From a bacterium (GTDB lineage: Bacteria; Patescibacteriota; CPR2; UBA1875; JAJYID01), in NCBI GenBank assembly GCA_021790235.1, contig JAJYID010000001.1:1-41130 (forward strand): a stretch of DNA of 41,130 nucleotides. The letters are read 5' to 3'. This document shows, in pieces, positions 18,722-41,084 of this stretch. Both the position numbers and the translations under genes were made by a program. The notes under the pieces are model-generated. The model was not told the DNA's origin, did no database searches, and worked only from the letters and a program-made list of their open reading frames with translations. Numbering within the stretch: position 1 is the stretch's first letter; every line of letters starts with the position of its first letter.

Positions 18722-20710
18722 TTAAGGATAAGTATGAAGATATGTATTGGCATCCTTGGCTGTCGCTGCCAGTTTGACCCGAAAATTATGGATACCCGGC
18801 TGAACATTATACGTGAGAGTTATCTGTTTATCAGCATCTTTTAGAATATCGCCAACGTTCAAAGGAAGAGACGTCAGGTTTGAAACCCCTTGGGAATTAT
18901 TGCTAGCGGTCAGAACTACCTCATGCGCGTCGTTATCACTAGAGTTTCTGATCGTAAAATCAACCGATAATTTATGCGCTTGATAATCAGCATAACTTGC
19001 CCAATAAGCCCTGGAAAGGATTAAAGCCAGGTGCAGGTCGAGCGGCTGAATCGGAATGTCTGCCAACGAATTAACTGTCCGGACATCGCTAGGATAGTAG
19101 AAGTCACCATCATCCGGATCAATGTTATCAAAACTGCTCAAGGTCTGTCTTTTCCCACCTTTCATAAGCCAGATATCAGACGATCCTTTTTTCTGAAGTA
19201 AGATATTATCATGTGTATTTAGCCAATTAATATCAGGTACCACCCTGCCAGAAGGGATCATGTCAACTATGCCTTGATCAATATCAATAATATTTTTCGC
19301 CTGTAAATTTCTTGATTGTAAAGTTTGAAGATTTGGTAAATGACGTTTTTTGTTACATTCAACAACATATACATCTAATGTACCTATTGGCCTTAATAAT
19401 TGCTCATTCCATACCATGGGCGTTCCTGTGGAGATCTGGTTAACTTCGGCATCTGTTAAAACTCTAACATCAGAGGAGTAATAGAAATCCCCGTCATTCG
19501 GATCGATCTGATCATATGTGAATAAGTATCTTTTCTGCCCTGCTTTCATAACATATGTCCAATCTTTGGAAACTCCTCTAATTAAGATGCCATCAGCTGT
19601 ATTCGACCATGTTATACTAGGCACACCTCTTCCTGTAGCCATTGTGTCTACAGCTCCTTGTGGAATATCATGTATAACCTCAGGTTTAAAGCCCCTAGAT
19701 TGCAAAGTTTCAAGGTTAGGGACTAAACGTTTTTTATTTCTATCCATGAGATATACAGCTAGAGATGATGATCCACGTGCTAGTTGGCCATTAAGATATA
19801 GAGCAGGACCAAAGGGTATACTGTTAAATTCTGTTTGTGAAATAACTCTTATATCAGAAGGGTAATAGAAATCCCCATCACCCGAATCGATCTGATCAAA
19901 GTTAAAGAGGTATCGTTTGAACCCATGACTCATTAGAAAAATAGCATTATCTGAAGAAGTTTTTATCAACACATAATCTGCCATATCTGACCATGTAATG
20001 CTTGGGACTCCCCTACCAATAGGATATCCATTTAAAATACTATCAGAAACATCCTTTATATTACCCCCAAATTCATTATCCAAGTAATCTAGAGTTTCAG
20101 GGTTAGGTATCAATCTCTTTTTGCCACGTTCTATAAAATAAACTGCTAGGCCAGAACCTCTACATCGGTCATGTTCATTACACTGAGTTACTGTAGGTGC
20201 CACAAAAACCGAATATATAAAGTGAATATCGGAATACATGGTGACATCTCTTGTATCTTTACACCACCTGCCACATGACCAATTCATTTCCGTAACTTTG
20301 AAAGAATTCGGAGAATATACCTGTTCCACAAATGCTACATGACCAGTACCTCCTCCTACATCTGATCCCCAGACAGCAACTGAACCATTTTTCGGCACCG
20401 ACCCTGTCACCATTCCGTGCTTCGCGGCATAACCAAGCCACTGCCAAGCATCACCATCTACTTTTAACTCTTCATTGGAATGGACTTCATGCCATCTGGC
20501 ATATACCCAATCTGTACAGAAGCCACCATACCCAACCCAAGAAAGTCGAGTAGGAATTTCAAGAATGTTTTTATTTAATGGAGCTAGACAAAATGGGATA
20601 ATCAATACCCATAAGACTATCACCAAAAACAGATGCCCTTTTAGAAAACGTAATAACCCTGAGGCTCTTTGCGATACTTTACCACTAAAAAATATTTTTC
20701 CTGCTTTCAT
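18722..20710 (-). CDS. Secreted CHAP-domain peptidoglycan hydrolase with three tandem 128-aa repeats and a C-terminal Ig-like domain
   Basis: Hydrophobic N-terminus; CHAP motifs FCTDWV, GDAWQW, GHVAFVEQV, VTEMNW; GDFYY motif recurs at an exact 384-nt period (19094, 19478, 19862). Confidence 0.85.
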   Translation of the reverse strand: MKAGKIFFSGKVSQRASGLLRFLKGHLFLVIVLWVLIIPFCLAPLNKNILEIPTRLSWVGYGGFCTDWVYARWHEVHSNEELKVDGDAWQWLGYAAKHGMVTGSVPKNGSVAVWGSDVGGGTGHVAFVEQVYSPNSFKVTEMNWSCGRWCKDTRDVTMYSDIHFIYSVFVAPTVTQCNEHDRCRGSGLAVYFIERGKKRLIPNPETLDYLDNEFGGNIKDVSDSILNGYPIGRGVPSITWSDMADYVLIKTSSDNAIFLMSHGFKRYLFNFDQIDSGDGDFYYPSDIRVISQTEFNSIPFGPALYLNGQLARGSSSLAVYLMDRNKKRLVPNLETLQSRGFKPEVIHDIPQGAVDTMATGRGVPSITWSNTADGILIRGVSKDWTYVMKAGQKRYLFTYDQIDPNDGDFYYSSDVRVLTDAEVNQISTGTPMVWNEQLLRPIGTLDVYVVECNKKRHLPNLQTLQSRNLQAKNIIDIDQGIVDMIPSGRVVPDINWLNTHDNILLQKKGSSDIWLMKGGKRQTLSSFDNIDPDDGDFYYPSDVRTVNSLADIPIQPLDLHLALILSRAYWASYADYQAHKLSVDFTIRNSSDNDAHEVVLTASNNSQGVSNLTSLPLNVGDILKDADKQITLTYNVQPGIHNFRVKLAATAKDANTYLHTYP

Positions 20711-20745
20711 ACAGAAAAAATAATATCATAATAAAGCTTATGCTA

Positions 20746-22209
20746 TCAAGGACTTTTTAAGTTTGGCAAAGCTAAAAGAATCCCTAAAAATCCAAAAATC
20801 GTTAGTGACATTTGGGGAAACTGGAGGGTATCTGTGAAAATACTCTGCACCAAAAAGGCAAAAAACGCTGTAGTAATCCCTAACGCTAACATCTTTAAAA
20901 ACTTATCATTCATACGCTCATAAATTATAAGTCCGGAATATAAACCTGCTAAAGCAAAAAAGACAAATGCAATGATGCCAACTATTCCTTGCTCTATTAA
21001 AATCTGTAAAAACTGATTATCGGTGTTTTGTATTGGCACGGCCCCTCCTTGAATACCTTCCATATAAACCATAGATGGGTTGATCTTAAAAGCTACTTCT
21101 CCGCCATACATTCCCGGACCGACTCCAAAAATTATATGATGGGGGAGAATATGGAAAACGTTATGCAGAGTCCAGGCTCTGCCGGAAACAGAGGAAATAG
21201 CATTATACCGGCTATCAAAGATATCAGTAAGACGATAAAAATAACTTTTTGGGATCACAAGAAGAGAGAATATGGAAAGCGGAATAAACCCCAAAATATA
21301 CTTCGGCTTATAGATAAAAAAGAAAAAACCCGCGCCCAGTGCCAATCCTATCCAGCCGCTTCTCGAGAAAGTCAGAACTAAAGCGGCTATAGTAACACCG
21401 AAGAGCGGCAAAAATAAAAGTTTATTTCTGAGACGCTTTAACCCAAAAAATATTCCAAGAGCTATAAAGAAAAAGATATCAAGATAACCGGATAAGATTA
21501 TCGGGTTATCGAGTGTCGAGAAAACTCTGGTTTTTATAAGTTCAAAGCCTTCAATCCACTGAGGCGTCTGGACACCCGACACTAACTGGCCAATTCCTAT
21601 TAGCGCAACGATAAAGACAATGGATAAGTTGAAAATCAGGAAAACCTTTAGTTGCCTTTTTGTCTGAAAGATTGTCCGGCCGATATAGAAAATAGTAAAA
21701 TATGAGAGCCAAATAAAGCTTTCGTAATATACATTTTTTACCTGCCCGTAAGTTACAACGCTGGCAACAGAAGAAACTAAAATACTGAAAATCACAAAAA
21801 TTATCCCAAAATCAGCTAAGGTAAAGCACGCGTTTTTCGTCCCTTTCCTGACAAAAAGCAAAACGGCGATCAAAACTAGGACTACAGGCACAAGGAATGT
21901 ATAAAAATGCGAAGGAAAGGCATTTTTTAGCCAACTTTTGAAGGGTGTAAAGATAAATATGAAAAAGAAAAGAGAGAGCGTCAGCTTGTCTAGAATTTCG
22001 GACTGAACTTGGGGCCTTAACCGATCAAACCCAGATGATATAGCATTAAAAAATCTGCTATTTCTCCAAAGTTCCAGATGATTCAGCCGGCTGGCCTTGA
22101 AATATTCTCTTTGCTTAAAAATGAAGCTATTTTCACAGAAAAAAGAAAGCTTCCGCATAAAAGAAGCAAACTTACTGCTTGCATAGATATTTTGAAAATT
22201 CGCTTTCAT
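20746..22209 (-). CDS. O-antigen ligase/polymerase (Wzy_C, WaaL-like) family protein
   Basis: RVFSTLDNP, LTFSRSGWIG, GVGPGMYG and DNQFLQILIEQGIVG motifs; multiple TM helices. Confidence 0.9.
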   Translation of the reverse strand: MKANFQNIYASSKFASFMRKLSFFCENSFIFKQREYFKASRLNHLELWRNSRFFNAISSGFDRLRPQVQSEILDKLTLSLFFFIFIFTPFKSWLKNAFPSHFYTFLVPVVLVLIAVLLFVRKGTKNACFTLADFGIIFVIFSILVSSVASVVTYGQVKNVYYESFIWLSYFTIFYIGRTIFQTKRQLKVFLIFNLSIVFIVALIGIGQLVSGVQTPQWIEGFELIKTRVFSTLDNPIILSGYLDIFFFIALGIFFGLKRLRNKLLFLPLFGVTIAALVLTFSRSGWIGLALGAGFFFFIYKPKYILGFIPLSIFSLLVIPKSYFYRLTDIFDSRYNAISSVSGRAWTLHNVFHILPHHIIFGVGPGMYGGEVAFKINPSMVYMEGIQGGAVPIQNTDNQFLQILIEQGIVGIIAFVFFALAGLYSGLIIYERMNDKFLKMLALGITTAFFAFLVQSIFTDTLQFPQMSLTIFGFLGILLALPNLKSP

Positions 22210-22649
22210 TAGTTAATTTTCATTACGGTTGTCTCAAGTTCGTAAGTGGACCTAAGCCAAACCTTTTCGCCCAAAGACACTCTCTGATTATCAAAATATG
22301 CCCCGTCATTATAAACATATCCGGTTCCGGATAAAGTCACCCGTACTTCTTTAAAGTCAGTTCTGCCCGATCCTTCCGGCATTGGCAGAACATCAACTTT
22401 TGAAACAGAGGTTTTGACGAGGCCCCGCCCAAAATAGACTTGCTTTACTCCCTGCATGCTGTTAGCTATATCAGGTTGAATGTCATCAACATAAACTGTA
22501 ACCGTCATGGGTTTGGAAGATTTGGCGAGGGAACCAGTTTGCAGAAATTTAAAGCCGATGAGCCCAGCGATAATGACAAGAAAAATAAGAACTAAAAAAT
22601 CTAAAACATTAACTTTGCCGAAAAGCCGGCCTTCTTTATCTACTATCAT
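22209..22649 (-). CDS. DUF4330-like membrane-anchored protein
   Basis: N-terminal IVDKEGRLFGKVNVLD followed by a TM helix. Confidence 0.75.
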   Translation of the reverse strand: MIVDKEGRLFGKVNVLDFLVLIFLVIIAGLIGFKFLQTGSLAKSSKPMTVTVYVDDIQPDIANSMQGVKQVYFGRGLVKTSVSKVDVLPMPEGSGRTDFKEVRVTLSGTGYVYNDGAYFDNQRVSLGEKVWLRSTYELETTVMKIN

Positions 22650-24592
22650 GAACTAATCCTTTCCTTCATCACATTATAAAAGAATTTTGGCAAAACGAGA
22701 AATCTGCCCAGCCTTTTAGGGTTTTGGATCAAGCGCCAGATCCCTTCCAAATACATTTTTTGAATAACTTTCGGGGCTCTTTTTTCAACGCCCGACCAAT
22801 ACCGGAACGTACCACCGACTCCGATGCAGACCGCACCGAGTTCGCTTCTGTGCCGCACAATCCACCTTTCCTGCTTCGGGCATCCCAACCCCACAAAGAT
22901 AAAGCTAGGCTTTAGCTTTTTAATTTCCTTAATAATTTCGCTGTTTTTTTCAAATTTACCATCTAGACTACACCTGCCCCCATCTTTGTAACCCACAATT
23001 TTCACCTTCGGATATTTGACACGGATATTTTTAACCGCCTGATCGAGAATTTTCTTGGTAGCTCCCAAGAAATAAAAACTCAAATCCTCTTTAGAACCCT
23101 CCTGAATTAATATTTCGGCCAAGTCTGCTCCCCCAACCCTTTCAGGAAAATGCCTACCCAAAATCTTTCCGGCCAGAACCACTCCCGAGCCGTCGGCTGT
23201 CACCATATCAGCTTGAGCAAAAGTATCGTTTAGAGCTTTATCTTTCGCTCCTTTTGAAACTATCTCCGCATTTGCCGTCACTATGAAAAATCCTTCTCTT
23301 TCTCTGGCAGCATTCATAGCTTTCTCAACCGATTCACTGAAAGAATGCGGGTCAACTCCGACTCCCAGTATAGAATATCTTTTCTTTTTTTGCGTCTCCA
23401 GCCGCTTAATGATTTCCTCGGTTCTTACTTCCCAGGTATTTTCCTTTGCCTCCTTTAAAACCAAGGCCTGAAACTTCGGGTCGTCTTTCAACTTTATGGC
23501 TTTATCCAAATTCTCAACAAATTCTTCCTTTGACTTTGATGCCAGAACACTCCCATATTTTTTGCATTCCCGCATATCGGTGGTGACAATGGGTTTGCCT
23601 GCCGCCATGTACTCGAAAAGTTTTAAAGGTGAAATGGACTGAGTAACCTTATTTAGGACAAAGGGCACCATGCAAACATCGAAGAAATGAATTCTTTTGG
23701 CCAAATCTTCATATTTAGGAACTGTTCCGATAAAGTGGATATTTGGATAGTCGCTCCATCTATGCACGCCGTTTGAGGTATCGAAGTCAAGCGGTCCGCT
23801 AATTACGAAGTTATAGTCCGGTCGAGCTTTGGCCGCATACTTTAAAAGGTCATAGTCGAAACAGCTTTCTATTAAAGAGCCAAAGTAGCCGATTATCGGT
23901 TTCTTGCCGATTAGCTTTTTCATTTCGCTGTCCGGCTTGATGCGCTTGCCGACCAAATGCCAAACCTCAAACAAAACGGCATTGTGAGACAAGAATGCGT
24001 CAGGTCTTTTATCTTTAATCCCATCTAAGAGCCGGCTGGCTGTCACGGGAATGATGTCTGCCTTTTTCAGAAGCTCGTTGTGACACTTGTAGATTTTGTT
24101 GCCCAGAAGAGGAAACATTTCAAGATCATCTACGAAGTCATAAATGATCGACTTTACCCTGTATTTTCGGGTATAGAAACTATTAGCCGCCCAGGTGAGA
24201 TACAAAATCGGACCTTTAATGTCTTTTAAAACCTCGAGCTGGTTAGTTAAATAGAGATTTTTCTCAATTTTTTCAAATCCCTCAACTTTGTCATAGCGCA
24301 GATTATGAGTGCCATAGAAAAAAAGATAACCTGCCCTTGAGAATGTTCTGGCCAGATGATTAAACCGCTGAGTAAGCGGCATGTTCCAGTCGGAGATGGA
24401 AGGGTAAATAATAATCCCTTTGGCATCTTTGTGCTTATTTAAAATCTTTTGAAGTTCGACCTGGTATTTTTTCTTTTCAAAGTAGTTTTCTCGCCCTGTC
24501 AGATATGGATGTTTGCAAAGAAAAATTTTAAGAGAGTTTCGGACCTTAATTCCAAACATTTTTTTGCTTAACTTGATCGCCAATTCTTTCAT
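22646..24592 (-). CDS. Fusion of a GT4 (TuaH-like) glycosyltransferase and a WecB/TagA/CpsF (GT26) glycosyltransferase
   Basis: N-part QRFNHLAR, YDFVDD, SPLKLFEYMAAGKPIV; C-part IVTANAE, ADGSGV, ERVGGADL, GLGCPKQE, KRAP. ATG 24592 overlaps the upstream stop (ATGA). Confidence 0.9.
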   Translation of the reverse strand: MKELAIKLSKKMFGIKVRNSLKIFLCKHPYLTGRENYFEKKKYQVELQKILNKHKDAKGIIIYPSISDWNMPLTQRFNHLARTFSRAGYLFFYGTHNLRYDKVEGFEKIEKNLYLTNQLEVLKDIKGPILYLTWAANSFYTRKYRVKSIIYDFVDDLEMFPLLGNKIYKCHNELLKKADIIPVTASRLLDGIKDKRPDAFLSHNAVLFEVWHLVGKRIKPDSEMKKLIGKKPIIGYFGSLIESCFDYDLLKYAAKARPDYNFVISGPLDFDTSNGVHRWSDYPNIHFIGTVPKYEDLAKRIHFFDVCMVPFVLNKVTQSISPLKLFEYMAAGKPIVTTDMRECKKYGSVLASKSKEEFVENLDKAIKLKDDPKFQALVLKEAKENTWEVRTEEIIKRLETQKKKRYSILGVGVDPHSFSESVEKAMNAAREREGFFIVTANAEIVSKGAKDKALNDTFAQADMVTADGSGVVLAGKILGRHFPERVGGADLAEILIQEGSKEDLSFYFLGATKKILDQAVKNIRVKYPKVKIVGYKDGGRCSLDGKFEKNSEIIKEIKKLKPSFIFVGLGCPKQERWIVRHRSELGAVCIGVGGTFRYWSGVEKRAPKVIQKMYLEGIWRLIQNPKRLGRFLVLPKFFYNVMKERISS

Positions 24593-25485
24593 TTGGTTTC
24601 TTCCCACTTTATGCCCCACTTTTCCTCAAACTTTTTCTTGTTCTCCTCAAATAACTCATTATACTTGCCTTTACCTAAACTAAAAAGGGAAATTTGTCCA
24701 AAATGATGCACAAAAACATCCTTAGCCACAACGATCTTATAACCTGATTTTACTACCCTTAAGCAATAATCATCATCTTCAAACATTCCAATACCAAATC
24801 TCTCATCAAGTTCACCGATTTTTCTAATTAATTCTGTTCGAGCTGCCACACAAAAGAAGGCAATATCGTCAGCTTCCCTGACTTTGCCTTTGTTTCGATT
24901 TGTAACGACACTCGATTTTTTTAGCATAGCACCTAGCGATCTATAGAAAATATCGATTTCCTGGTGGTTCCACATAAAGTTTGTTAGAGGTCCGACTAAT
25001 CCAACTTTTTTGTCTTTAAGTGGCAGAATAAGTTTTTCTACCCAGCCCGGCGTCACAATAGTATCGTTATTTAGAAAAATGATGTACTCTCCGGTTGCCT
25101 TTTTAATTCCCTGGTTACAACCGCCCGAAAACCCTTTGTTGGTTTTATTTAAAGTCAGCTTGACGTTTTTGTGTTCTTCTGCAAAGTTTCCCAAGAATTC
25201 TGGCGTTCCGTCGGAAGAATTATTATCTACTATGACTAGCTCAAGATCGCAGGTATCAGAATATGCCAGAATGCTGTAAAGACAGGCTTTGGTGTACTTA
25301 AGGTTGTTGAAGGTAAGTAAAATAATACTGACCTTCGGTTTTCCGAGTCCTTCTTTCTTCCGATTTTCAGTGCTTTTTTTGAGATTAGAAATCGCATCAT
25401 CAATATCTAACGGCATGTAGCGTTTTCGCACTATTTTTATGGTCTTTTTGGGTTTTAGAGCTGCCCTGACTATTTTTTTGATCAT
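24589..25485 (-). CDS. Glycosyltransferase family 2
   Basis: VSIILLTFN, VDNNSSDGT, FLNNDT, FEDDDYC and VHHFG motifs. Confidence 0.93.
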   Translation of the reverse strand: MIKKIVRAALKPKKTIKIVRKRYMPLDIDDAISNLKKSTENRKKEGLGKPKVSIILLTFNNLKYTKACLYSILAYSDTCDLELVIVDNNSSDGTPEFLGNFAEEHKNVKLTLNKTNKGFSGGCNQGIKKATGEYIIFLNNDTIVTPGWVEKLILPLKDKKVGLVGPLTNFMWNHQEIDIFYRSLGAMLKKSSVVTNRNKGKVREADDIAFFCVAARTELIRKIGELDERFGIGMFEDDDYCLRVVKSGYKIVVAKDVFVHHFGQISLFSLGKGKYNELFEENKKKFEEKWGIKWEETK

Positions 25486-26417
25486 TTTGCCACCCGTTTC
25501 TTTAGCTCTTGAAAATCAAGCCTTAGAAGTAAGCTTATACCTGTCACTGCCTTATGAAAAAATCTGTAACAAAAACCAGGAATTTGTAATATGAGCGGTT
25601 TTTGATCGTAGAAAATATTGTAATATTTATTAACTAGTTCCCGGTCCTTTCGATAAAGCCAACTTCTCCCATCCTCCTTGTAATATTTTTGCTCGTCAGG
25701 CTCCTCATTTGACCATTTTTTTAGAAATAGTTTGTTATTTTTAATGTCATAATCGTGGCGTCCAGGAGAAACGCTTTCATGGTGGATAATTACACTTTCC
25801 GGGCAGTAAATAATTTTGTATCCTTTGTTAAATATCTTCAAACAAAGATCAACATCTTCCATGCTGTTAAAATAGGTTTCGTCAAAGCCGCCCACCTCTT
25901 GGAAAATATCCCTTTTTACCGCCAAACAAGCGGCCGTTACAGCCTTAAATTCCCTTTGTTTGTTAACATAAGGCCTGTCCGGTGACTCGCGATAGTAAAT
26001 CGGGCGAGGGATGCGGTCATTTGCGATCACTATCCCAGCATGTTGAATAAGACCGTCCGGAAATAAGAGTTTAGAGCCGACTACCGCAACATCTTTCTTC
26101 TCTAGTACTTTAAGCAGGGACTCTAGCCATCCTTTTTGCACTTCGGTATCGTTATTTAAGAAAAGCAGAATGTCTCCCTTGGCTAACTTAGCGCCCTGGT
26201 TACAACCCTTGGCGAAACCGGTGTTAATCTTGTTTTCAACAAAGTTAATCCAGTCAATTTTTCTAAGATATTCCTGCGTCCCATCGGAAGATTTGTTATC
26301 TATAATAATGATGTCTTTTAAGAATTCTTTCGGCGTATTTTTCCTAAGCGCCTCTAAACATTTCTTAGTATAATCAAGCTTGTTGTATGTGAGAATAATA
26401 ATGCTAATATTAGACAT
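25482..26417 (-). CDS. Glycosyltransferase family 2
   Basis: IDNKSSDGT, FLNNDTEV, IQHAG, EDVDLCL and HHES motifs; ATG 26417 chosen (track start 26429). Confidence 0.93.
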   Translation of the reverse strand: MSNISIIILTYNKLDYTKKCLEALRKNTPKEFLKDIIIIDNKSSDGTQEYLRKIDWINFVENKINTGFAKGCNQGAKLAKGDILLFLNNDTEVQKGWLESLLKVLEKKDVAVVGSKLLFPDGLIQHAGIVIANDRIPRPIYYRESPDRPYVNKQREFKAVTAACLAVKRDIFQEVGGFDETYFNSMEDVDLCLKIFNKGYKIIYCPESVIIHHESVSPGRHDYDIKNNKLFLKKWSNEEPDEQKYYKEDGRSWLYRKDRELVNKYYNIFYDQKPLILQIPGFCYRFFHKAVTGISLLLRLDFQELKKRVAK

Positions 26418-26433
26418 ATTTTTTCTCAAAAAT

Positions 26434-27336
26434 TTATCTTTTAATCTTCTTAAAAAATAAAATGACTTTTATCCATTTTAAATATATCTTTCTAAACTTT
26501 AGAATATTATTTGGAACCGTTCCGTACTTGTCTGGCACATACGCCATATATTTAATATTGAAAAAAAATATTTGAAGCCTATTAAAACCATCTTCTTTGA
26601 AATAGATATTAGCATCACTTAAAGTTTCCCACCATCTAGATATAAATAAATCAAGATTCCTTATTGTATATCTATGTCTATCTAAACTAATGCTTTCATG
26701 ATGTGTGACAACACTTTTTGGTTCATAAATAATTTTATAGCCAGCCTTGCCAATTTTAAGACATAGATCCATATCCTCATAGCCATTTTTATAATATTCA
26801 TCAAAACCACCAACTAAATCAAATACTTTTTTTGGTATTGCTATACATGCGGCACTAACAGCCTGGAATGTTCTCTTCTTATTAACATATTTTTTATTAG
26901 CCGGACTAAGGCGATATATATGTTCAGGTACCTTACTATCAAATATAGCTACACCTGCATGTTGTATAGTACCATTAGGGAAAAGGAGTTTAGCTCCAAC
27001 AGCTCCAATCATTTTTTCTTTTTTTAGTACATTGATTATAGGTATCAACCAATTATCATGAACTTCTGTATCATTGTTTAAAAACAATAAAACTTCATTT
27101 TTCGCAATATGGGCCCCTTGATTACAGGCACCAGAAAAATTATTATTTTGCTTATTTAAAATATAAGTAATATCCTTCTGGTCTTTTAAAAAACTTTGAG
27201 TACCATCAGTAGAAGCATTATCAACAACTATCATTTCATATAGATCTTTTTTAGTTTTTTCCCTAATTGCTTTTAAACATTTTTTTGTATAGCTAAGATT
27301 ATTATATGTGGGTATAATAATGGATACTTTTTTCAC
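26434..27336 (-). CDS. Glycosyltransferase family 2
   Basis: VSIIIPTYN, VDNASTDGT, FLNNDTEV, IQHAG, EDMDLCL and HHES motifs. Confidence 0.93.
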   Translation of the reverse strand: MKKVSIIIPTYNNLSYTKKCLKAIREKTKKDLYEMIVVDNASTDGTQSFLKDQKDITYILNKQNNNFSGACNQGAHIAKNEVLLFLNNDTEVHDNWLIPIINVLKKEKMIGAVGAKLLFPNGTIQHAGVAIFDSKVPEHIYRLSPANKKYVNKKRTFQAVSAACIAIPKKVFDLVGGFDEYYKNGYEDMDLCLKIGKAGYKIIYEPKSVVTHHESISLDRHRYTIRNLDLFISRWWETLSDANIYFKEDGFNRLQIFFFNIKYMAYVPDKYGTVPNNILKFRKIYLKWIKVILFFKKIKR

Positions 27337-28544
27337 TTCAAACCATCCTTTATAGCCTGTTCTATAATTCTGGCTGATTTTTCCCAGCTTAAGTTCTTAA
27401 CCTGTTTTAGAGCATTATCTGACAATATTTTTCTCTTATCTTCGTTTTCAATTAAATCATTTATTACTTTAGCCATATCCTTAGGATTCAAGCTAGAAAG
27501 TGTTATATAATCATTATCCTGACCAAAAACAGCCCTAGTATTATCTCCATCAGCCTCGACAACGGGTAATCCGCATGCCATCATTTCTTGTGGTAAAAGA
27601 GAGTAGTTTGTTAAAGAAAGACTTATCCCAATCATGCTTTCTCTATAAAGATCAGCAAGTTCTTCATGGGTAAAGACTCCTCCATTCGTATACTCAAAAG
27701 TAACTTCTGGACTTTCTTTTTGACCAATAAATATTATTTCTATCTCAGGATGCTTCTTTTTTACCTGTTCGAGTGCTAACATAGCTATTTCAAAGCCCCT
27801 CCTAGGTGTAATTTGTCTACAATAATAGAGTATTTGCGGCTTTCTCTTGGCTTTCACTTTGGTATTATATATTTCTGGATCATACGCTAGATCATAATAA
27901 GTAGAGTTATTACCATACTCCTGCATTTTTTTTGTAAGCCATTTGCCTGCAGTTATACAGTTAAGTCCCATTTTATAAGTATTTTCAGCAAAAATATATT
28001 GACTACCCATTGGGAAAAATAATGGCTCAAAATCTTGAACAAAATAATATTTTGCCTTAGAATTTTCGTTTTCATGTACTATGTATGCGGTCTCCCAAGA
28101 GGTAGCTATTACTGCATCAGAATCTACCATATCTTCACAATTATCAAAAATGTCAGCTTGGAGTTCAAAGAAATTTTCATTAATAACAATTTTTGCATCT
28201 TTTGCAGTGCCAAAACTCGTACCACCATAAATGTATATATTACACTTGTGGCCAAATGACTCTAAATATTGAATTGCTCTAAAAATATTAAAGTGACCAC
28301 CAGATCCAATATAAAAGTCCGGTATAACCCAGTTGATTGTAAGATGATCCTTGAACACCTTTTCTTTTTTAACCTCTTTGGAAATTTTCTTCTCAGAAAG
28401 ACTGACATCACCAATAAAATTATATGGAAGTACAACTTCTCTAGGTCTTTTATCTCTTTTAGACCAGGCGACTGTTTTTTTTACAGCAATTAATAATCCT
28501 TGTTTTTTTACAATTTGAAAAAACTTTTTCATATATCTAAACAT
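27333..28544 (-). CDS. GT4 glycosyltransferase, WsaF-like (probable rhamnosyltransferase)
   Basis: INWVIP..GSGGH.NIFR, ATSWETAY, YFVQDFEPLF, TPRRGFE and TNYSLLPQEMMACGLPVV motifs. Confidence 0.85.
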   Translation of the reverse strand: MFRYMKKFFQIVKKQGLLIAVKKTVAWSKRDKRPREVVLPYNFIGDVSLSEKKISKEVKKEKVFKDHLTINWVIPDFYIGSGGHFNIFRAIQYLESFGHKCNIYIYGGTSFGTAKDAKIVINENFFELQADIFDNCEDMVDSDAVIATSWETAYIVHENENSKAKYYFVQDFEPLFFPMGSQYIFAENTYKMGLNCITAGKWLTKKMQEYGNNSTYYDLAYDPEIYNTKVKAKRKPQILYYCRQITPRRGFEIAMLALEQVKKKHPEIEIIFIGQKESPEVTFEYTNGGVFTHEELADLYRESMIGISLSLTNYSLLPQEMMACGLPVVEADGDNTRAVFGQDNDYITLSSLNPKDMAKVINDLIENEDKRKILSDNALKQVKNLSWEKSARIIEQAIKDGLK

Positions 28545-33785: not shown

Positions 33786-33787
33786 TT

Positions 33788-35020
33788 TTACTTACCCCAC
33801 CTATAATCTATATTTATTATCCCTTGATTTCTATCTACAGAAACTACTTTAAAAAAATTTGATTTTTCAAGGAGGTCGAGTGGCATTTCCTTTTTACTGC
33901 CCCAAATACCAACCTTTACATAGTATGAATTTGTTCTTAGAGGGATACCATCATACTCAACTTGAAAATAACCTTTTCTAAGATAAACAGATGTATCAAT
34001 TTTATCGAAAGAGGTATGTATCCCAAATATATAGTTTCCTTCACTATTATAAATAGCTACACCAAATTCTAAATTACTGATATTCTTATCTTTCTTAAAA
34101 TAAACTCGGACTTTAAGATTTTCACCAGTTTTGAAAATATTTTTCGGTTTTTCTGCTTTGTCTAGAAACTGAACTTTTGTTATCGATGCTTTTTTTGTTG
34201 GTTTCTTTTTATCGGAATTACTATCTGCTTTTTTTAAATCTTCACTATAGATTCTATTTTCTTCATCTTTTATGTTGTCCTGTGAATATTTATTCGCTAC
34301 TTCCTCGGCTCTACCAATTTTCATAACCTTTCCATTTCGGAGTAGCATCACTCTATCACAATGCTTCTGTACAGTGTTGATATCGTGAGAAACAAGAACA
34401 ACTGTCTTCCCTTGTTCCTTGTATTTATTAAACTCATCTATACATTTGCTTTGAAAATTAGTATCGCCAACCGCTAAAACCTCGTCCATCAAAAGTATTT
34501 CGGCATGAGCGTTTATCGCAAGTGAAAATGCTAAGCGTACTTGCATACCTGAAGAGTAGTTTTTCAGTTTCATATCTATAAACTCTTCCAGCTCAGAAAA
34601 CCTCACTATCTTATCGAATTTATCAGCTACCTCTTGTCTTGTGAGTCCAAGAATGGCTCCCCCTAAAAACAGATTTTCACGTCCAGTAAGTTCAGGGTTG
34701 AATCCTACCCCCAATTCAAGAAATGGAGAGAGTTTGCCGTGAATCTCGACTTTTCCTGTTGTTGGGACATAAATACCAGCTAGTATCTTTAGTAGCGTGC
34801 TTTTACCGCTACCATTTCTACCTATTATCCCAAAAAATTCACCTTTTTTTATCTCAAAAGACACATCTTTCAATGCCTTAAATGTTTCGTATGAGTTCTT
34901 TTTAAACATATTGATCGCAGCGCCCTTTAGATTGTTACGTTTTTCATGAGGAATACTAAATATTTTTGACACATTCTCCACTCGTATTGCTACCTCACTC
35001 TTATCTATATTTTTCTTCAT
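33788..35020 (-). CDS. wzt: Polysaccharide ABC exporter ATP-binding subunit with C-terminal carbohydrate-binding domain
   Basis: GRNGSGKST, LELGVGFNPELTGREN, YSSGMQVRLAFS, LMDEVLAVGD; about 150 aa C-terminal extension. Confidence 0.95.
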   Translation of the reverse strand: MKKNIDKSEVAIRVENVSKIFSIPHEKRNNLKGAAINMFKKNSYETFKALKDVSFEIKKGEFFGIIGRNGSGKSTLLKILAGIYVPTTGKVEIHGKLSPFLELGVGFNPELTGRENLFLGGAILGLTRQEVADKFDKIVRFSELEEFIDMKLKNYSSGMQVRLAFSLAINAHAEILLMDEVLAVGDTNFQSKCIDEFNKYKEQGKTVVLVSHDINTVQKHCDRVMLLRNGKVMKIGRAEEVANKYSQDNIKDEENRIYSEDLKKADSNSDKKKPTKKASITKVQFLDKAEKPKNIFKTGENLKVRVYFKKDKNISNLEFGVAIYNSEGNYIFGIHTSFDKIDTSVYLRKGYFQVEYDGIPLRTNSYYVKVGIWGSKKEMPLDLLEKSNFFKVVSVDRNQGIINIDYRWGK

Positions 35021-35040
35021 ATCTATTATTTAATTTATTT

Positions 35041-35829
35041 TTATACTTCCTCAGCAAACTTTGCTGCCATTTTCTGGAAAACCATATAACTAATACCAAG
35101 AATAGTTATCACCAAGATAAAAGGAATGACGGAATACCAACCTAAAACACTCCAAGAAGTAGTTATATTACCAGAAATAATTGTTGATCTTGCTCCTTGA
35201 ATAACCTGTGCCAAAGGACTCAACATTAAAATTTTCAAGAATCTTGTTGGCACTAAACTGGTAGGATAAAGGATGGGTGTTGCATAAAATAAACCTTGTG
35301 CTATAACTTCCCAAATAGGACCAATATCTCTAAACTTTACAAATATAGCTGCTAAGAAAAGTGACACAGAGATAGTAAAGATATAAAACTCTACTAAATA
35401 TAAAGGTAATATAAAAATATTAAATGTAAATGGTACCTTACTAAACATAGCAAAACCTGCTACCACGACCAGATTAAGTATCAGAGTTGCAAAAGATGTA
35501 AGACTTATAGCAATCGGCATAATAATTCTAGGAAAATAAACCTTTCTAATAAGGTCTCCATTACCAACTATAGAACCCATACACATAGAAGTTGTCTCAA
35601 CAAAAAATTGAAATAATGTAATACCTAAAAGTAAATATACCGCATAATAAGGGATGGTTGAACCAAGTTTAAAAACATTATTAAAAACTATGTATAGAAT
35701 AAGAAAAAGGAATAAAGGCTTCATCAGTGACCATAAATAACCAAAAAAAGACCCCTGATACTTCATCTTAAAACCTGTTATTGCCAACTCTCTGGTAAGG
35801 TCATAGTATTTAAGCTTATTTATTTTCAT
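35041..35829 (-). CDS. wzm: Polysaccharide ABC exporter permease
   Basis: KYQGSFFGYLWSLMKPL, LIRKVYFPR, KFRDI and FYATPILYP motifs. Confidence 0.95.
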   Translation of the reverse strand: MKINKLKYYDLTRELAITGFKMKYQGSFFGYLWSLMKPLFLFLILYIVFNNVFKLGSTIPYYAVYLLLGITLFQFFVETTSMCMGSIVGNGDLIRKVYFPRIIMPIAISLTSFATLILNLVVVAGFAMFSKVPFTFNIFILPLYLVEFYIFTISVSLFLAAIFVKFRDIGPIWEVIAQGLFYATPILYPTSLVPTRFLKILMLSPLAQVIQGARSTIISGNITTSWSVLGWYSVIPFILVITILGISYMVFQKMAAKFAEEV

Positions 35830-35946
35830 AATCTGTGATATTTTAGCATATTTAAGTGCTTTTTAAAAGTAATTTGATACATCTTGAAAATATTCTGTTT
35901 TAGTATAAAATGAAATGGTATTGTTTATTACTAGATAAGGATAATT

Positions 35947-36930
35947 TTGACTTTAAAAAATCATTATAGTAACTCAAATGTACTTATAACTGGCGGCAAT
36001 GGGTTCATTGGTGCAAACCTTACGGAAATATTAGTCAAGCTTGGTGCTAATGTAACAGTGTTTACGAATATCGCGCAGCCAGGTTGGGAAAAGAAATTCA
36101 AAATTAATGGTAAAACAAACACTGTCATAGGAGATATTACTTCAAAAAAAGATACTGAAAAAGTAGTACAAAATATGGATTTTGTTTTTCATTTAGCGGG
36201 TATATCCGGAGCTACTGAAAGTAATGAGAGATCACTTTTAGATATGCAGATAAATTGTGGTGGAGTATTAACTTTACTAGAGGCATGTAGAAAAAAAAAT
36301 CAAAGAGCACGAATTCTTTTTCCTAGTTCACAACTCGTATATGGTCAGGCTAACAAATTACCTGTGGCTGAAAGTCACTCAACAGAACCTACTAGTATAT
36401 ATGGTATACACAGATTAACAGTTGACAAATATATCGTACTTTACAATAAAGTTTTTGGACTCAAAACTGTCGCTCTTAGAATTCCTAATCCATATGGTCC
36501 AAGACAAAGTATGGATCATACCTATGGGATTGTTAACTATTTTATTGGCAGAGTACTTGCTGGTAACAATATTACAATCTATGGAGAAGGAAATCAGATG
36601 AGAGACTATATTTATATTGAAGATTTAATTGAGGCTATGTTAATTTCAAATGCTAGTCCAGAATCAATAGGCAAAGTATACAATGTAGGTAGCGGGAAAC
36701 CTCATCAATTCAAAGAGATGGCAGAGAAAATTACTAAAGTTATTGGGATTGGTGATATCAAGCATGTCGAATTCCCCAAAAATGCTGCAAAGTCTGAGGT
36801 TGGAGACATTTATTTAGATATTGGAAAAATTAAAGAAGAACTTGGTTGGGAACCATCAACAAAACTTGAAGATGGCATTAGAAAAACAATAGCTTACTAT
36901 AAAAAATCCTCTATTGAATCCTTGGCATAA
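35947..36930 (+). CDS. NAD-dependent epimerase/dehydratase (extended SDR)
   Basis: VLITGGNGFIG, VFHLAG, NPYGPRQ, RDYIYIED and YNVGSG motifs; transcribed divergently from wzm. Confidence 0.93.
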   Translation: MTLKNHYSNSNVLITGGNGFIGANLTEILVKLGANVTVFTNIAQPGWEKKFKINGKTNTVIGDITSKKDTEKVVQNMDFVFHLAGISGATESNERSLLDMQINCGGVLTLLEACRKKNQRARILFPSSQLVYGQANKLPVAESHSTEPTSIYGIHRLTVDKYIVLYNKVFGLKTVALRIPNPYGPRQSMDHTYGIVNYFIGRVLAGNNITIYGEGNQMRDYIYIEDLIEAMLISNASPESIGKVYNVGSGKPHQFKEMAEKITKVIGIGDIKHVEFPKNAAKSEVGDIYLDIGKIKEELGWEPSTKLEDGIRKTIAYYKKSSIESLA

Positions 36931-36939
36931 AAAAAGTCT

Positions 36940-37478
36940 TTAACTCACATCCGCCCCATTGGGCAAGGCATTTAAAGTAGCCGGATCAGAATCATAAACA
37001 TCATACCAATTATAGCCATGCTCATTAAAAATGGTAATCGTAGGAATATAACACTTAGCACCACTTTCGATTAGATAAATTTTCCCGCTAGAAGGATCTC
37101 TGGCTAGTTTGGTTACTAAGTATCCATTTGAATATCCATCTAGATATGCATCATTAGGCGTGAAAAGAATATTGTTCCAATTAAACCCCCAGTTATTAAA
37201 GGTGTCTGAGCTGTTGATTGCTCTTTTTTCATGATTTTCGATAAAATAAACAGCCCCGCCATAAGAATGTGCTACTAGTTGCGGCAAGGTTATATCTGAT
37301 CCATTAGCCAACAATGAGAGAGTGTCAGAAGAAGCATCGCTAACTTCATCCCAATGAAATCCATAAAAATTGAATGTTTCTGGACTGTCTATCCATTGTT
37401 TGCTCCCATTAGTTACAAGATAAATCTTGCCATCAATTGTAGAGTTAGGCAGACGGGTAAGGGTTGGGGAAGTAGAAA
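36940..37478. repeat. Direct repeat, copy 1 (539 bp; 3' end of the S8 peptidase gene)
   Basis: Matches 38937-39475 at offset 1997; by eye a single difference (36952 C vs 38949 T). Confidence 0.95.
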
Positions 37479-38931
37479 AAGGGATAAGTACATTCTCTGT
37501 GGACCATCCTACGTCAGACCAGTTAAAGCCCCAGTTATTAAAGGTGCCCACGCTAGCTATAGCGTATTTTATATTTTGGCTGCTGAGAAAGTAGATCCGA
37601 CCAGTGTCCTTTGCCCCAACAAGTTGATGATTGAATATTGATTGCTTGATATTTATCCTTCCATAGCCATACTCTTGGCTAAAAACCTGTCCATTCATAT
37701 TTGGTACTTTATCAACCCAAATTTCGATTTTTGATACTATCTGATCATTTGTGAGGGTATTGTCTTGCGCCAGAAGTAAGCTTGCTTCACCGGTCACTTC
37801 AGGAGTTGCAAGTGATGTACCATCAGCAGTGGCATAACTATTTGAAGAGTATGAATTACCATCCCAAATTGTGGAAGACGATGTTATTGAAACTCCCGGA
37901 GCCGTAACATCAAGTTCTGGACCATAATTTGAACCCCAGCCATAATTTGCTGTTGTCACTCTTCTATCTTGGTTGTCTGTTGCACCGACAGCGATAACGT
38001 GAGGTTCGGCTGCCGGGTAATCGACTCCTTGCACATCATCATTACCGGCAGCAGCCACCAAAACAACCCCCTTCCCATAAGCATAATTTATAGCATTCTC
38101 TAATACTGTATCCGGCCCTAAGGCGTGTGATTCTCCGAAGCTCATATTAATAACCTTTGCTCCATTGTCTGCTGCATATTCTATAGCCGCGGCTACATTA
38201 ACACTGTTCCCACCGCCATTGTTATCAAGGCATCTAACAGGCATGATTTTTGCATTCCAGTCTATACCGGCTATACCCTTGCCGTTGTTGGCATTTGCAG
38301 CAATAACACCAGCTACCAATGTTCCGTGCATGTAAGAAGTGCCGCCGCCGCTTACTGGAGAAGGATCATTATCATTGTCAACAAAATTCCAACCGTATTT
38401 GTCATCTATATATCCATTATTATCATCGTCAACACCAGTTACACCATTTATTTCGGTCTGATTTTGCCAAATTCTCCCGGTAAATTCTTCATGAATCGGA
38501 TGGGCGCTATCCATACCCACATTTATGCCTGTATCAAGTACTGCAACGGTCACTGAACTACTACCTGTTGCTCCGGCAGCCCATGCTTGATCTGCCTTTA
38601 TCTGTGGTATATTCCACTGGTTTGGATAATCAGGGTCGTTAACTGTTGTTGCTTTATAATATTTGATTGGTTTTTTGTCTTTAATCAATAGGGGTTCGGT
38701 AACAATCCCCAAAATACTCACACTTTTTCTTTGAATTTTATATAGTCCGGGGGATGATTTGAGCTTGAGGTCTTTGACATCATAACCTTCATTTTTTAAT
38801 GTTTGTATGTTCTGAGGAGCTATTTTGCCAAAGAATGCAGATGAGTTGTCTGCTGATACAAGTTTAACACTTAAAATCAAAGTCAACGATAAAACAACGA
38901 ATAGAAATAATGCACAACGATAAAGCCTCAT
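36940..38931 (-). CDS. Secreted S8 (subtilisin-like) serine peptidase with four C-terminal repeats
   Basis: Signal peptide; triad VAVLDTG, HGTLVAG, GTSLATP; oxyanion AAAGN; DDDNNGYIDD loop. Confidence 0.93.
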   Translation of the reverse strand: MRLYRCALFLFVVLSLTLILSVKLVSADNSSAFFGKIAPQNIQTLKNEGYDVKDLKLKSSPGLYKIQRKSVSILGIVTEPLLIKDKKPIKYYKATTVNDPDYPNQWNIPQIKADQAWAAGATGSSSVTVAVLDTGINVGMDSAHPIHEEFTGRIWQNQTEINGVTGVDDDNNGYIDDKYGWNFVDNDNDPSPVSGGGTSYMHGTLVAGVIAANANNGKGIAGIDWNAKIMPVRCLDNNGGGNSVNVAAAIEYAADNGAKVINMSFGESHALGPDTVLENAINYAYGKGVVLVAAAGNDDVQGVDYPAAEPHVIAVGATDNQDRRVTTANYGWGSNYGPELDVTAPGVSITSSSTIWDGNSYSSNSYATADGTSLATPEVTGEASLLLAQDNTLTNDQIVSKIEIWVDKVPNMNGQVFSQEYGYGRINIKQSIFNHQLVGAKDTGRIYFLSSQNIKYAIASVGTFNNWGFNWSDVGWSTENVLIPFSTSPTLTRLPNSTIDGKIYLVTNGSKQWIDSPETFNFYGFHWDEVSDASSDTLSLLANGSDITLPQLVAHSYGGAVYFIENHEKRAINSSDTFNNWGFNWNNILFTPNDAYLDGYSNGYLVTKLARDPSSGKIYLIESGAKCYIPTITIFNEHGYNWYDVYDSDPATLNALPNGADVS

Positions 38932-38936
38932 TTCTC

Positions 38937-39475
38937 TTAACTCACATCTGCCCCATTGGGCAAGGCATTTAAAGTAGCCGGATCAGAATCATAAACATCA
39001 TACCAATTATAGCCATGCTCATTAAAAATGGTAATCGTAGGAATATAACACTTAGCACCACTTTCGATTAGATAAATTTTCCCGCTAGAAGGATCTCTGG
39101 CTAGTTTGGTTACTAAGTATCCATTTGAATATCCATCTAGATATGCATCATTAGGCGTGAAAAGAATATTGTTCCAATTAAACCCCCAGTTATTAAAGGT
39201 GTCTGAGCTGTTGATTGCTCTTTTTTCATGATTTTCGATAAAATAAACAGCCCCGCCATAAGAATGTGCTACTAGTTGCGGCAAGGTTATATCTGATCCA
39301 TTAGCCAACAATGAGAGAGTGTCAGAAGAAGCATCGCTAACTTCATCCCAATGAAATCCATAAAAATTGAATGTTTCTGGACTGTCTATCCATTGTTTGC
39401 TCCCATTAGTTACAAGATAAATCTTGCCATCAATTGTAGAGTTAGGCAGACGGGTAAGGGTTGGGGAAGTAGAAA
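38937..39475. repeat. Direct repeat, copy 2 (539 bp; 3' end of the 715-aa gene)
   Basis: Matches 36940-37478. Confidence 0.95.
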
Positions 39476-41084
39476 GAACACTTAGTATAGGGGAATATGA
39501 GATTGTAAAAACATCATTCTGATTAAATCCCCAATTTAAAAAGGTATTATAATTATTTATCAAGTGTTTAGAACCATTTCCAATAAGGTATATGCCAGGG
39601 CTCCCTTCTTGTTCAGCAAGATTTGATAAATTATTACCAGAAGGCAGTTCTTGCATTGTACTGTCATTTAAAGTATTAATAGTCGAAGCGTCAAACTTCC
39701 AGTCATTAAAAACTGTTGTACTTGGAATATAGCGTTTTCTACCTTGGTCTAAAACAAATTCATCTACCCCACTGCCTTTAATAAGGAAACTACCAAAGTC
39801 ACTACCAGCACTCAATGTGTTTAACAAGTCAGAAGAAATTATACAGATATTTCTTGCTGGAAAGCCAAGATGACCCAACAACCCTGAAACAAGAATGTGA
39901 TGTTTTACACCATTATCAACTAAGTATATATCAGTAGAAGGATCAGGGCCTTTCACTAGATATGAAAAATTCATCCCATTCGGTAAATAACCTAAAGTAA
40001 CTGAGCTAATGTGTAAAATATCGGCTCTATTAAAACCCCAAATATCGAATGCCGCCCAATCTGGTACCCAATGTTTACTCCCTGCATCGATAACATAAAT
40101 TGCACCTGCATCATCAGCAGCATAATTAGTTAGTGCAGTAGATGTCGTATAACTATTTAAAACATTTGAATCAATATAATTTACCGGATATTTGTTTAGG
40201 CCCCAATTAACATATTCACTACTGGAAATATATCTTTTTACATTGTTATCCAATAAATAAAGTGCTTTTGGATCTGGTGAGGATGAATCAGCAATGATGT
40301 TAGGCCCTTGTACCAAAAGTGATCCAAACCACGATGAGTAAATATTAGTAAAATCTGTTTGGATATGAGGTGTATAACGATATAGCGCTGCCGTTGCACC
40401 ATTACCTAAATATATTGACTGCCCATCTATAGGCACAGTATTACCTGTCCAATATATACCCGCATGCGAATCATGAGTATTTGCCCAAATGGCCCACTGT
40501 GCCAGGCCACCCGACCCCCAATCTACCTGCATAGCAAAGCCAGCACATGACCCACTTGGATTATAATTAGTGCTAGTACCACATGTAGCATTAATCCCAC
40601 TTTCGGTATAAGCATAGCCCATGGCCCACATAACATATCCATACCAAGGGCTAGAGTTATAAGTCACTAGACTTGACTCCTTCTGAAGGGTTGTAAGAAT
40701 AACCATGGGATTAATACCATACCACTGTGAATCCATATAAATTAAGTGAGCAGCACTCCATCCCGTGGCATCAACTTCCTGCCCAACTGGCCCAACCCAA
40801 GTTCCCTCATAATAATTCACACCCTGATATGTTTCATATCTGGCAGCTGGAACTGTATAATTTGCTAGATAACTACCATGGGAAACCAAAAAATTCTGAA
40901 TTGTTTGCTCAGTCATAGAGTTTTTATTGAAAAAAATGCTATCATCAATCACTCTACTATTATCAAATGCGAATGTTTTTTGGGGATGGGCGAATATAAA
41001 AAAAGGGCCAAGGACTAATAGTAGAAGTGTTGGCACCCCCTTGCCCTTGGATAGCAATCTGAACAGTATTTTAATGTTGAACAT
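38937..41084 (-). CDS. Secreted protein with a putative lysozyme-like N-terminal domain and eight C-terminal repeats
   Basis: Signal peptide; GINPMVILTTLQKESSLV, AMGYA, GFAMQV, NGATAALYRYTPH; repeated IYLI..G.K..I.....F..WGF units. Confidence 0.75.
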   Translation of the reverse strand: MFNIKILFRLLSKGKGVPTLLLLVLGPFFIFAHPQKTFAFDNSRVIDDSIFFNKNSMTEQTIQNFLVSHGSYLANYTVPAARYETYQGVNYYEGTWVGPVGQEVDATGWSAAHLIYMDSQWYGINPMVILTTLQKESSLVTYNSSPWYGYVMWAMGYAYTESGINATCGTSTNYNPSGSCAGFAMQVDWGSGGLAQWAIWANTHDSHAGIYWTGNTVPIDGQSIYLGNGATAALYRYTPHIQTDFTNIYSSWFGSLLVQGPNIIADSSSPDPKALYLLDNNVKRYISSSEYVNWGLNKYPVNYIDSNVLNSYTTSTALTNYAADDAGAIYVIDAGSKHWVPDWAAFDIWGFNRADILHISSVTLGYLPNGMNFSYLVKGPDPSTDIYLVDNGVKHHILVSGLLGHLGFPARNICIISSDLLNTLSAGSDFGSFLIKGSGVDEFVLDQGRKRYIPSTTVFNDWKFDASTINTLNDSTMQELPSGNNLSNLAEQEGSPGIYLIGNGSKHLINNYNTFLNWGFNQNDVFTISYSPILSVLSTSPTLTRLPNSTIDGKIYLVTNGSKQWIDSPETFNFYGFHWDEVSDASSDTLSLLANGSDITLPQLVAHSYGGAVYFIENHEKRAINSSDTFNNWGFNWNNILFTPNDAYLDGYSNGYLVTKLARDPSSGKIYLIESGAKCYIPTITIFNEHGYNWYDVYDSDPATLNALPNGADVS

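Follow-up and report, generated by a model that had tools for sequence, protein, structure and literature searches.

The repeat-bearing genes of the window

The stretch of DNA analysed here, hereafter called the window, corresponds to the first 41,130 nucleotides of contig JAJYID010000001.1 (assembly GCA_021790235.1), from a bacterium of the CPR2 lineage of the Patescibacteriota. It contains three genes, coding for a CHAP peptidase, a subtilase of family S8 and a protein of 715 amino acids, whose products all carry tandem copies of a repeat unit of about 57 amino acids and which lie among genes for the synthesis and export of a glycan (Table 1). An initial annotation had counted 18 units on three different secreted hydrolases (six, four and eight, respectively) and had interpreted them as a candidate undescribed anchor, which would bind a glycan and tether the hydrolases to the organism's own polymer or, if the organism is an epibiont, direct them to the wall of a host.

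The CHAP protein matches the Pfam family CHAP (PF05257) at residues 60–143 (E-value 2.9e-12; 47.4 bits, the cut-off being 26), and its cysteine and histidine motifs can be read in the sequence (GFCTDW and GHVAFVE). The subtilase matches Peptidase_S8 (PF00082) at residues 125–424 (E-value 2.5e-49, 168.6 bits), with its Asp, His and Ser motifs equally legible (LDTGI, HGTLVAG and GTSLATP); the 715-residue protein has no Pfam match, even at E ≤ 10. A single N-terminal hydrophobic segment, resembling a transmembrane helix, is found in each of the three proteins, which are accordingly exported or membrane-anchored. Behind its repeats, the CHAP protein ends in a domain of about 97 residues (residues 566–662, window positions 18725–19015) for which Pfam gives no match, and which is common to three other CHAP-repeat proteins (P0011, P0025 and P0027) with 47 to 52% identity.

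All 18 proposed units can be aligned in one block of 57 columns. A hidden Markov model (HMM) built solely from the eight units of the 715-residue protein recovered the four subtilase units, with independent E-values of 6e-15 to 2e-27, and three units of the CHAP protein (residues 189–233, 318–361 and 446–489; independent E-values 3.5e-8 to 5.5e-7, 17–21 bits). A second, external HMM was built from 528 units in 147 proteins of other organisms. It scored the 12 units of the subtilase and of the 715-residue protein at 35–56 bits and the six CHAP units at 46.2, 28.5, 42.1, 25.5, 37.6 and 1.0 bits, the top score among 300 shuffled controls being 7.8 bits. Judged against these controls, 17 of the 18 units are solid, and only the sixth CHAP unit (residues 513–554) is degenerate. 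The motif first written down for the repeat agrees with the consensus derived from the outside sequences, VYLIENGKKRHIPSPETFNAWGYSWSDVVTVSDSELNSIPTGPPL. The proposal that the units come in pairs holds clearly for the CHAP protein, in which A and B units follow each other in turn, one pair taking up about 128 residues (mean BLOSUM score of 125 for same-parity and 33 for different-parity pairs), and weakly for the 715-residue protein (68 versus 59).

The 3' ends of the subtilase gene and of the gene of the 715-residue protein are nearly identical over 539 bp, with one mismatch, and beyond an in-frame boundary the identity falls abruptly to about 30%; a repeat finder reported 300 nt at 100% between the two ends. 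The shared segment spans 3.2 repeat units, and at the protein level units 2–4 of the subtilase are 100% identical to units 6–8 of the 715-residue protein, so that the subtilase contributes only one independent unit. We read this identity as the probable trace of a recent gene conversion or duplication between tandem genes, an assembly artefact being less likely. In a genome of the same genus (G001) an S8 protein carries its own set of four units, and this orthologue independently supports the combination of a subtilase with four units as a real architecture.

Table 1. Coordinates of the genes, domains and repeats in the window.
Feature	Position	Strand	Description
CHAP peptidase gene	18722..20710	-	662 residues; open reading frame and Pfam
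CHAP repeat array	18995..20149	-	residues 188–572; three A/B unit pairs, sixth unit degenerate
Subtilase (S8) gene	36940..38931	-	663 residues; signal peptide, four C-terminal repeat units
Subtilase repeat array	36943..37599	-	residues 445–663, four units; external HMM 35.3–56.0 bits
715-residue protein gene	38937..41084	-	exported; predicted lysozyme-like N-domain, then eight repeat units
715-residue protein, N-domain	40266..40997	-	residues 30–273; predicted lysozyme-like, invariant QKE motif
715-residue protein, repeat array	38940..40265	-	residues 274–715, eight units; external HMM 35.1–55.8 bits
Direct repeat, copy 1 (539 bp)	36940..37478		3' end of the subtilase gene
Direct repeat, copy 2 (539 bp)	38937..39475		3' end of the gene of the 715-residue protein
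GT4 polyprenyl-phosphate sugar-phosphate transferase (WecA/TagO-like)	17576..18583	-	Pfam Glycos_transf_4, E-value 3.4e-36
Wzy_C "ligase"	20746..22209	-	Pfam
DUF4330	22209..22649	-	Pfam
GT1 and WecG/TagA fusion	22646..24619	-	Pfam
Glycan assembly and export: three GT2, WsaF-like glycosyltransferase, fourth GT2, WbsX, methyltransferase and WbsX, Wzt (Wzt_C), Wzm	24589..35829	-	Pfam
NAD-dependent sugar epimerase/dehydratase	35947..36930	+	Pfam Epimerase, E-value 9.5e-53

The repeat family and its partner domains

No model of Pfam (E ≤ 10) or NCBIfam (E ≤ 1) covers the repeat in the three proteins, and Pfam returns only CHAP and Peptidase_S8. A stray match to TIGR01459 of NCBIfam was rejected, its 18.1 bits being far under the cut-off of 103.75. 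SLH, CW_binding_1, CW_binding_2, LysM, SH3b, LGFP and PG_binding gave no Pfam match at E ≤ 10 in any of the three proteins, in agreement with the initial annotation, in which the repeat could not be recognised as an SLH, CWB2 or choline-binding module. It resembles SLH, CWB2, choline-binding, LysM, SH3b and LGFP modules in being a non-catalytic repeat at the end of exported wall enzymes, but differs from all of them in unit length, predicted fold and sequence. One relative (P0005) carries an LGFP module in addition to the 57-residue repeat.

The family is large. Among 1.84 billion proteins, 4450 cluster representatives match the repeat at E ≤ 1e-3, a count that falls to 1806 with a threshold of 1e-10 and to 188 with one of 1e-30. 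Within the phylum the repeat occurs in 41 of 300 other genomes, which range from about 0.5 to 2.1 Mb and are mostly near 1 Mb, and in 6 of 40 genomes of close relatives; the 18 units of the window are the only copies in the source genome, which is 64% complete. Of the 150 best representatives, 113 have an array that extends to the C-terminus; the arrays comprise 3 to 16 units (median five), and an N-terminal hydrophobic segment is present in 100 of 148 representatives, compared with 3 when a control stretch is considered. As to phages, a family of unknown function in PHROGs, phrog_9616, matches a unit at 64.1 bits. Clusters of the Atlas with Myxococcota, Actinomycetota or phage members (scores 0.92–0.94) can be mentioned as leads only.

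The domains joined to the arrays were identified with Pfam in 65 representatives. Known peptidoglycan enzyme domains are present in 23 of them (13 Amidase_2, 9 SpoIID, 4 CHAP, 3 M23 and 1 Glucosaminidase, with overlaps), 12 further ones bear the N-terminal domain of the 715-residue protein described below, and other partners are S8 in three and CAP in two. In 31 open reading frames (ORFs) of the phylum, five S11 DD-carboxypeptidases, two M11 and two C39_2 were found as partners, along with CHAP, Amidase_2, SpoIID and S8. The attachment of the repeat to varied exported catalytic domains, proposed from the three proteins of the window, is seen both there and in other genomes, and the predominance of peptidoglycan enzymes among the partners points to the wall in general rather than to one polymer.

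The N-terminal domain of the 715-residue protein was predicted to have a lysozyme-like fold by VIA-align, and Foldseek on this domain returned no match at E ≤ 1e-3. It is common to 28 other representatives and to 21 ORFs of the phylum; its carriers include a family of about 470 residues, in which three or four repeat units follow, and proteins of about 750 residues that add an S11 carboxypeptidase. The 470-residue proteins had drawn attention through weak matches to PF05108, the Pfam family T7SS_ESX1_EccB, and were rejected as true EccB homologues, consisting as they do of the lysozyme-like domain and repeats. The domain is probably a peptidoglycan glycosidase according to this modelled fold, which makes the 715-residue protein a plausible hydrolase and leaves standing the original description of the three proteins as hydrolases.

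Predicted fold, EccB and the case for wall binding

Units 5–8 of the 715-residue protein were modelled with AlphaFold2 from an alignment of 26 rows (predicted local distance difference test score, pLDDT, 91.1; predicted template-modelling score, pTM, 0.69). In the model each unit is predicted to begin with a beta-hairpin, which is followed by two successive helix–strand pairs. When this model was compared with the PDB using Foldseek, the top 11 matches were all EccB1, EccB3 or EccB5 (E-values 2.2e-5 to 5e-3), followed at rank 12 by chain C of the endolysin LysIME-EF1, and for single units the nearest matches outside EccB are wall-binding domains of phage endolysins. The repeats R1–R4 of EccB (PDB 4kk7, 3x3m, 5cyu and 7nps), as described in the structural report on that protein (PMC4769845), have the same unit size and the same composition, and the modelled unit accordingly presents the features of that fold, namely 50 to 57 residues, a four-stranded sheet and two helices. 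The relationship also appears at the sequence level, the repeat region of 8 of the 65 representatives matching PF05108, for which the cut-off is 27 bits, with scores as high as 61.4. All eight stretches overlap repeat units, and the profile positions matched, about 160–250 or 417–460, correspond to R2 (185–241) and R4 (391–445) of EccB1 (PMC4769845).

The proteins of the window are nevertheless not EccB. In EccB an N-terminal membrane helix is combined with a central six-stranded core and exactly four repeats, which form a fixed quasi-twofold body within a secretion machine, whereas the arrays of the window are open and tandem, with eight, four and six units placed behind lysozyme-like, S8 and CHAP domains. 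The model contains no core domain, the units are arranged differently relative to each other (root-mean-square deviation of 11.8–25 over about 110 residues), and PF05108 was found neither in the three proteins nor by a search of the source genome (64% complete). The literature found on EccB-like proteins is all mycobacterial and deals chiefly with ESX-5 type VII secretion structures, and no description of free-standing EccB-like repeats was found in it. The module has no Pfam or NCBIfam model, but its fold is not entirely new, the repeat being a remote homologue of the EccB repeats, for which structures have been solved.

The second group of candidate structural relatives comprises the wall-binding domains of PlyCB, Lys170 and LysIME-EF1 (PDB 4f87, 7d55 and 6ist), which bring peptidoglycan hydrolases to the wall, as the repeat is proposed to do. 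Sequence similarity to them was undetected. A search of PDB sequences with the repeat profile gave a best E-value of 0.48, to unrelated enzymes, the 715-residue protein gave no match as a query, and four units queried with tblastn were not matched in any of 50,697 phage records. Furthermore, phage domains of the PlyCB and Lys170 type act as oligomers of single domains and not as tandem arrays in one chain. The likeness between EccB repeats and PlyCB has been pointed out before (PMC4769845).

From the fold and the partner domains, we consider it probable that the repeat is a non-catalytic wall-targeting module with an EccB-repeat/PlyCB-like fold, which keeps exported enzymes on the wall. Each unit would fold as the same small alpha/beta domain as R1–R4 of EccB and resemble wall-binding domains of the PlyCB/Lys170 type. 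Tandem arrays of 3 to 16 units, usually C-terminal, would hold the exported enzymes on the wall, where the catalytic domain may work locally; in the window the module would thereby serve a peptidoglycan peptidase (CHAP), a putative glycosidase of the lysozyme type (the 715-residue protein) and an S8 protease. Binding to the wall, as well as the identity of the ligand, is what we infer from these comparisons. The ligand is most likely peptidoglycan or a glycan attached to the wall, and a conserved aromatic patch, W-G-F/Y-x-W, is a candidate sugar-binding site. Of the earlier claim of a glycan-binding anchor, the anchoring part finds support in apparent fold relatives that include proven wall-binding domains, while the partners point to the wall generally.

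Several observations weigh against this proposal. The 150 representatives were picked with a profile derived from the window, so that the figures on architecture apply solely to the members closest to it; Pfam recognises no domain at all in 22 of the 65 representatives, and three of the partner types, S8, M11 and CAP, do not belong to the peptidoglycan enzymes. Since the proteins of the window have no PF05108 match at E ≤ 10, the sequence link to EccB runs through their relatives, which match the profile over single repeat units only, and the global template-modelling scores to EccB are low (0.22–0.25). Finally, peptidoglycan binding by EccB is itself put forward as a suggestion (PMC4769845), and binding by members of the repeat family is putative.

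The main other rival is a pure scaffold role as in EccB, in which the array would be a rigid spacer or an oligomerisation scaffold without ligand, projecting or assembling the catalytic domains across the envelope. The repeats of EccB build an elongated periplasmic body, and its periplasmic domains assemble in the ESX-5 complex, as the titles of PDB entries 7nps and 7np7 state; the model of units 5–8 has a defined packing between units, as its pTM indicates, and unit numbers vary widely. C-terminal tandem arrays on peptidoglycan hydrolases are, however, the classic layout of binding modules, the closest single-unit matches outside EccB are the endolysin domains mentioned above, and an exposed and conserved aromatic motif would suit sugar binding better than spacing. 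We regard a role without ligand as quite improbable, and retain the wall-targeting module as the preferred reading.

The glycan locus and the ligand of the repeat

The glycan genes recognised in the initial annotation (TagO/WecA, TagA, DUF4330, a ligase and Wzm/Wzt) are all borne out by Pfam. With Wzm, Wzt bearing a Wzt_C domain, an initiating GT4 and serial glycosyltransferases (GTs) in one locus, the window holds what is expected of a glycan pathway dependent on an ATP-binding cassette (ABC) transporter. The contig continues beyond the window with a membrane protein of about 11 helices, an FAD enzyme, GtrA, two further sugar-nucleotide dehydratase/epimerase genes and two nucleotidyltransferases. 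As sugar-nucleotide genes thus continue past the end of the window, the genes of the subtilase and of the 715-residue protein are embedded in the locus, which occupies about 17.5–48 kb of the contig, and not placed at its edge. The membrane protein (480 residues), encoded just past the end of the window and adjoining GtrA, has no Pfam match and is possibly a glycosyltransferase of the GT-C type that decorates the glycan outside the membrane.

Other observations concern the locus itself. TagA, a small DUF4330 or DUF4330-like protein and Wzy_C are kept as a trio in the glycan loci of the source genome and of the congeneric genome G001, and a genome from another family of the same order (G019) has the series Wzy_C, a protein of 132 residues and TagA; DUF4330 may be a working part of the glycan pathway. 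The G+C content is 0.30–0.35 over window positions 26000–36000, which hold the central GT genes and Wzm/Wzt, versus 0.37–0.45 on either side; O-antigen and S-layer glycan clusters, too, are reported to be low in G+C. A protein with VanW and PG_binding_4 domains (13366–15114), encoded just before the upstream end of the locus and next to a membrane pyrophosphatase, is a candidate wall enzyme.

Much of this gene set is also found in the slg cluster of Geobacillus stearothermophilus, where the S-layer protein is glycosylated by Wzm/Wzt, WsaE (which includes a methyltransferase domain), WsaF and WsaB, a Wzy_C O-oligosaccharyltransferase (PMC2943079). Both loci have Wzm/Wzt, a fusion of a methyltransferase with a GT, a WsaF-type GT, Wzy_C and flanking sugar-nucleotide genes. 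The locus of the window starts with a WecA/TagO-like GT4 and TagA, however, and that of Geobacillus with WsaP, and the former has in addition DUF4330, WbsX-type GTs and the three hydrolase genes inside. Given this slg-type set, the glycan of the window could be carried by protein instead of the wall. The locus would in that case represent a protein O-glycosylation system, with the repeat proteins as its substrates or as processors of its glycoprotein product, and co-location would say nothing on the ligand of the repeat. The set found here (Wzm, Wzt with Wzt_C, the methyltransferase-GT fusion, the WsaF-like GT and Wzy_C) fits such a system, as does the lack of an LCP-type ligase in the window by Pfam. 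A primer formed by WecA/TagO and TagA is, on the contrary, typical of wall-linked polymers, and an S-layer gene is not among the genes identified. We hold protein O-glycosylation to be very unlikely.

A more substantial alternative is that the repeat acts as a lectin and recognises the glycan of the surrounding locus, the polymer and the enzymes anchored to it forming one cassette restricted to this lineage. SLH domains, which bind a pyruvylated wall polymer, provide the model for such a pairing, and the genes of SLH and CWB2 anchors lie near those of the polymer bound. In the three genomes of this order whose contigs are sufficiently long, the co-location is complete. All repeat matches lie inside a locus with Wzm/Wzt, TagA and Wzy_C in the source genome (G000, 18 of 18), in G001 (all 9, at 51.6–56.6 kb of its contig C4) and in G019 (all 10, at 132.3–135.8 kb of its contig C108). 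The locus of G001 combines rml-like genes, an S8-repeat protein, a repeat protein of 964 residues, Wzm, Wzt, GTs, a GT1-TagA fusion and DUF4330; that of G019 reads Wzy_C, TagA, six GTs, an ABC ATPase, Wzm, an M11-repeat protein, a lysozyme-like-repeat protein, RmlD and RmlC. The protease partner varies between the two lineages, being of the S8 or of the M11 family, yet its position beside Wzm is kept, and in G019 the pair adjoins rmlC and rmlD. The embedding of the subtilase and 715-residue genes, with sugar-nucleotide genes on their far side, speaks in the same direction. The binding of PlyCB to the polyrhamnose backbone of the streptococcal wall polysaccharide (bioRxiv 10.1101/2021.03.19.436156) lends the idea some colour, the locus having a WsaF-like GT of the rhamnosyltransferase type.

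Across the phylum, this association is absent. TagA (PF03808) is no commoner in genomes with the repeat (32 of 41) than in those without it (198 of 259, counting genome G174 among the 198), contrary to the co-occurrence first expected; family f16 has the repeat in 4/4 genomes and TagA in 0/4, and family f3 TagA in 10/10 and the repeat in 0/10. In 8 of 34 genomes, belonging to five taxonomic families, TagA and a repeat gene are separated by no more than about 10 kb, and six of these loci were annotated. In all four of the annotated genomes from other lineages (G264, G301, G209 and G048), TagA stands alone in a conserved housekeeping block, not in a glycan locus, with the order M23, GltX, TagA, (UppS), ClpB, repeat protein, Memo/LigB, AMMECR1, PriA, Def and Fmt. 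The repeat protein of this block is composed of the lysozyme-like domain and repeats, sometimes with an S11 DD-carboxypeptidase, which suggests that its gene is a core wall-maintenance gene. The link between the repeat and a glycan locus, first proposed from the window, thus holds in three genomes of the order, where every repeat gene is in the locus, and fails phylum-wide; the association is real but limited to about two independent lineages, G000 and G001 sharing their ancestry.

Besides this narrow base, it must be considered that the enzymes may occupy an island of surface biogenesis without their anchor binding its product. We find it rather unlikely that the repeat is a lectin specific to the local polymer. 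The same doubtful standing applies to its order-specific version, according to which the repeat would bind the glycan of the locus, possibly containing rhamnose, in a self-contained display cassette, and the same module would be the hold of EccB on the mycobacterial wall glycan. Unlikely, too, in our view is the corresponding reading of the cassette, in which the locus, besides making a polymer, would supply three enzymes held on it, namely a protease, a CHAP peptidase and one resembling a muramidase. The wall-targeting module thus remains the reading we prefer, and the repeat is probably an ordinary wall anchor whose genes lie, in this case, inside a surface-sugar cluster.

A C-terminal wall-binding repeat on hydrolases is in itself an ordinary design and does not constitute a new kind of system. 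If the ligand were nonetheless the glycan encoded by the locus, the repeat and this polymer would make up a new anchor-polymer pair, comparable to SLH domains with their pyruvylated wall polymer. In either case, this is a domain family of thousands of sequence clusters without a Pfam or NCBIfam model of its own, and many ultra-small bacteria, whose envelope biology has barely been explored, carry it on their principal wall-remodelling enzymes. With a profile for the repeat, the tails of many autolysins now labelled "hypothetical" could be annotated, and it would offer a testable function, the binding of wall glycan or peptidoglycan, for the EccB repeats of type VII secretion.

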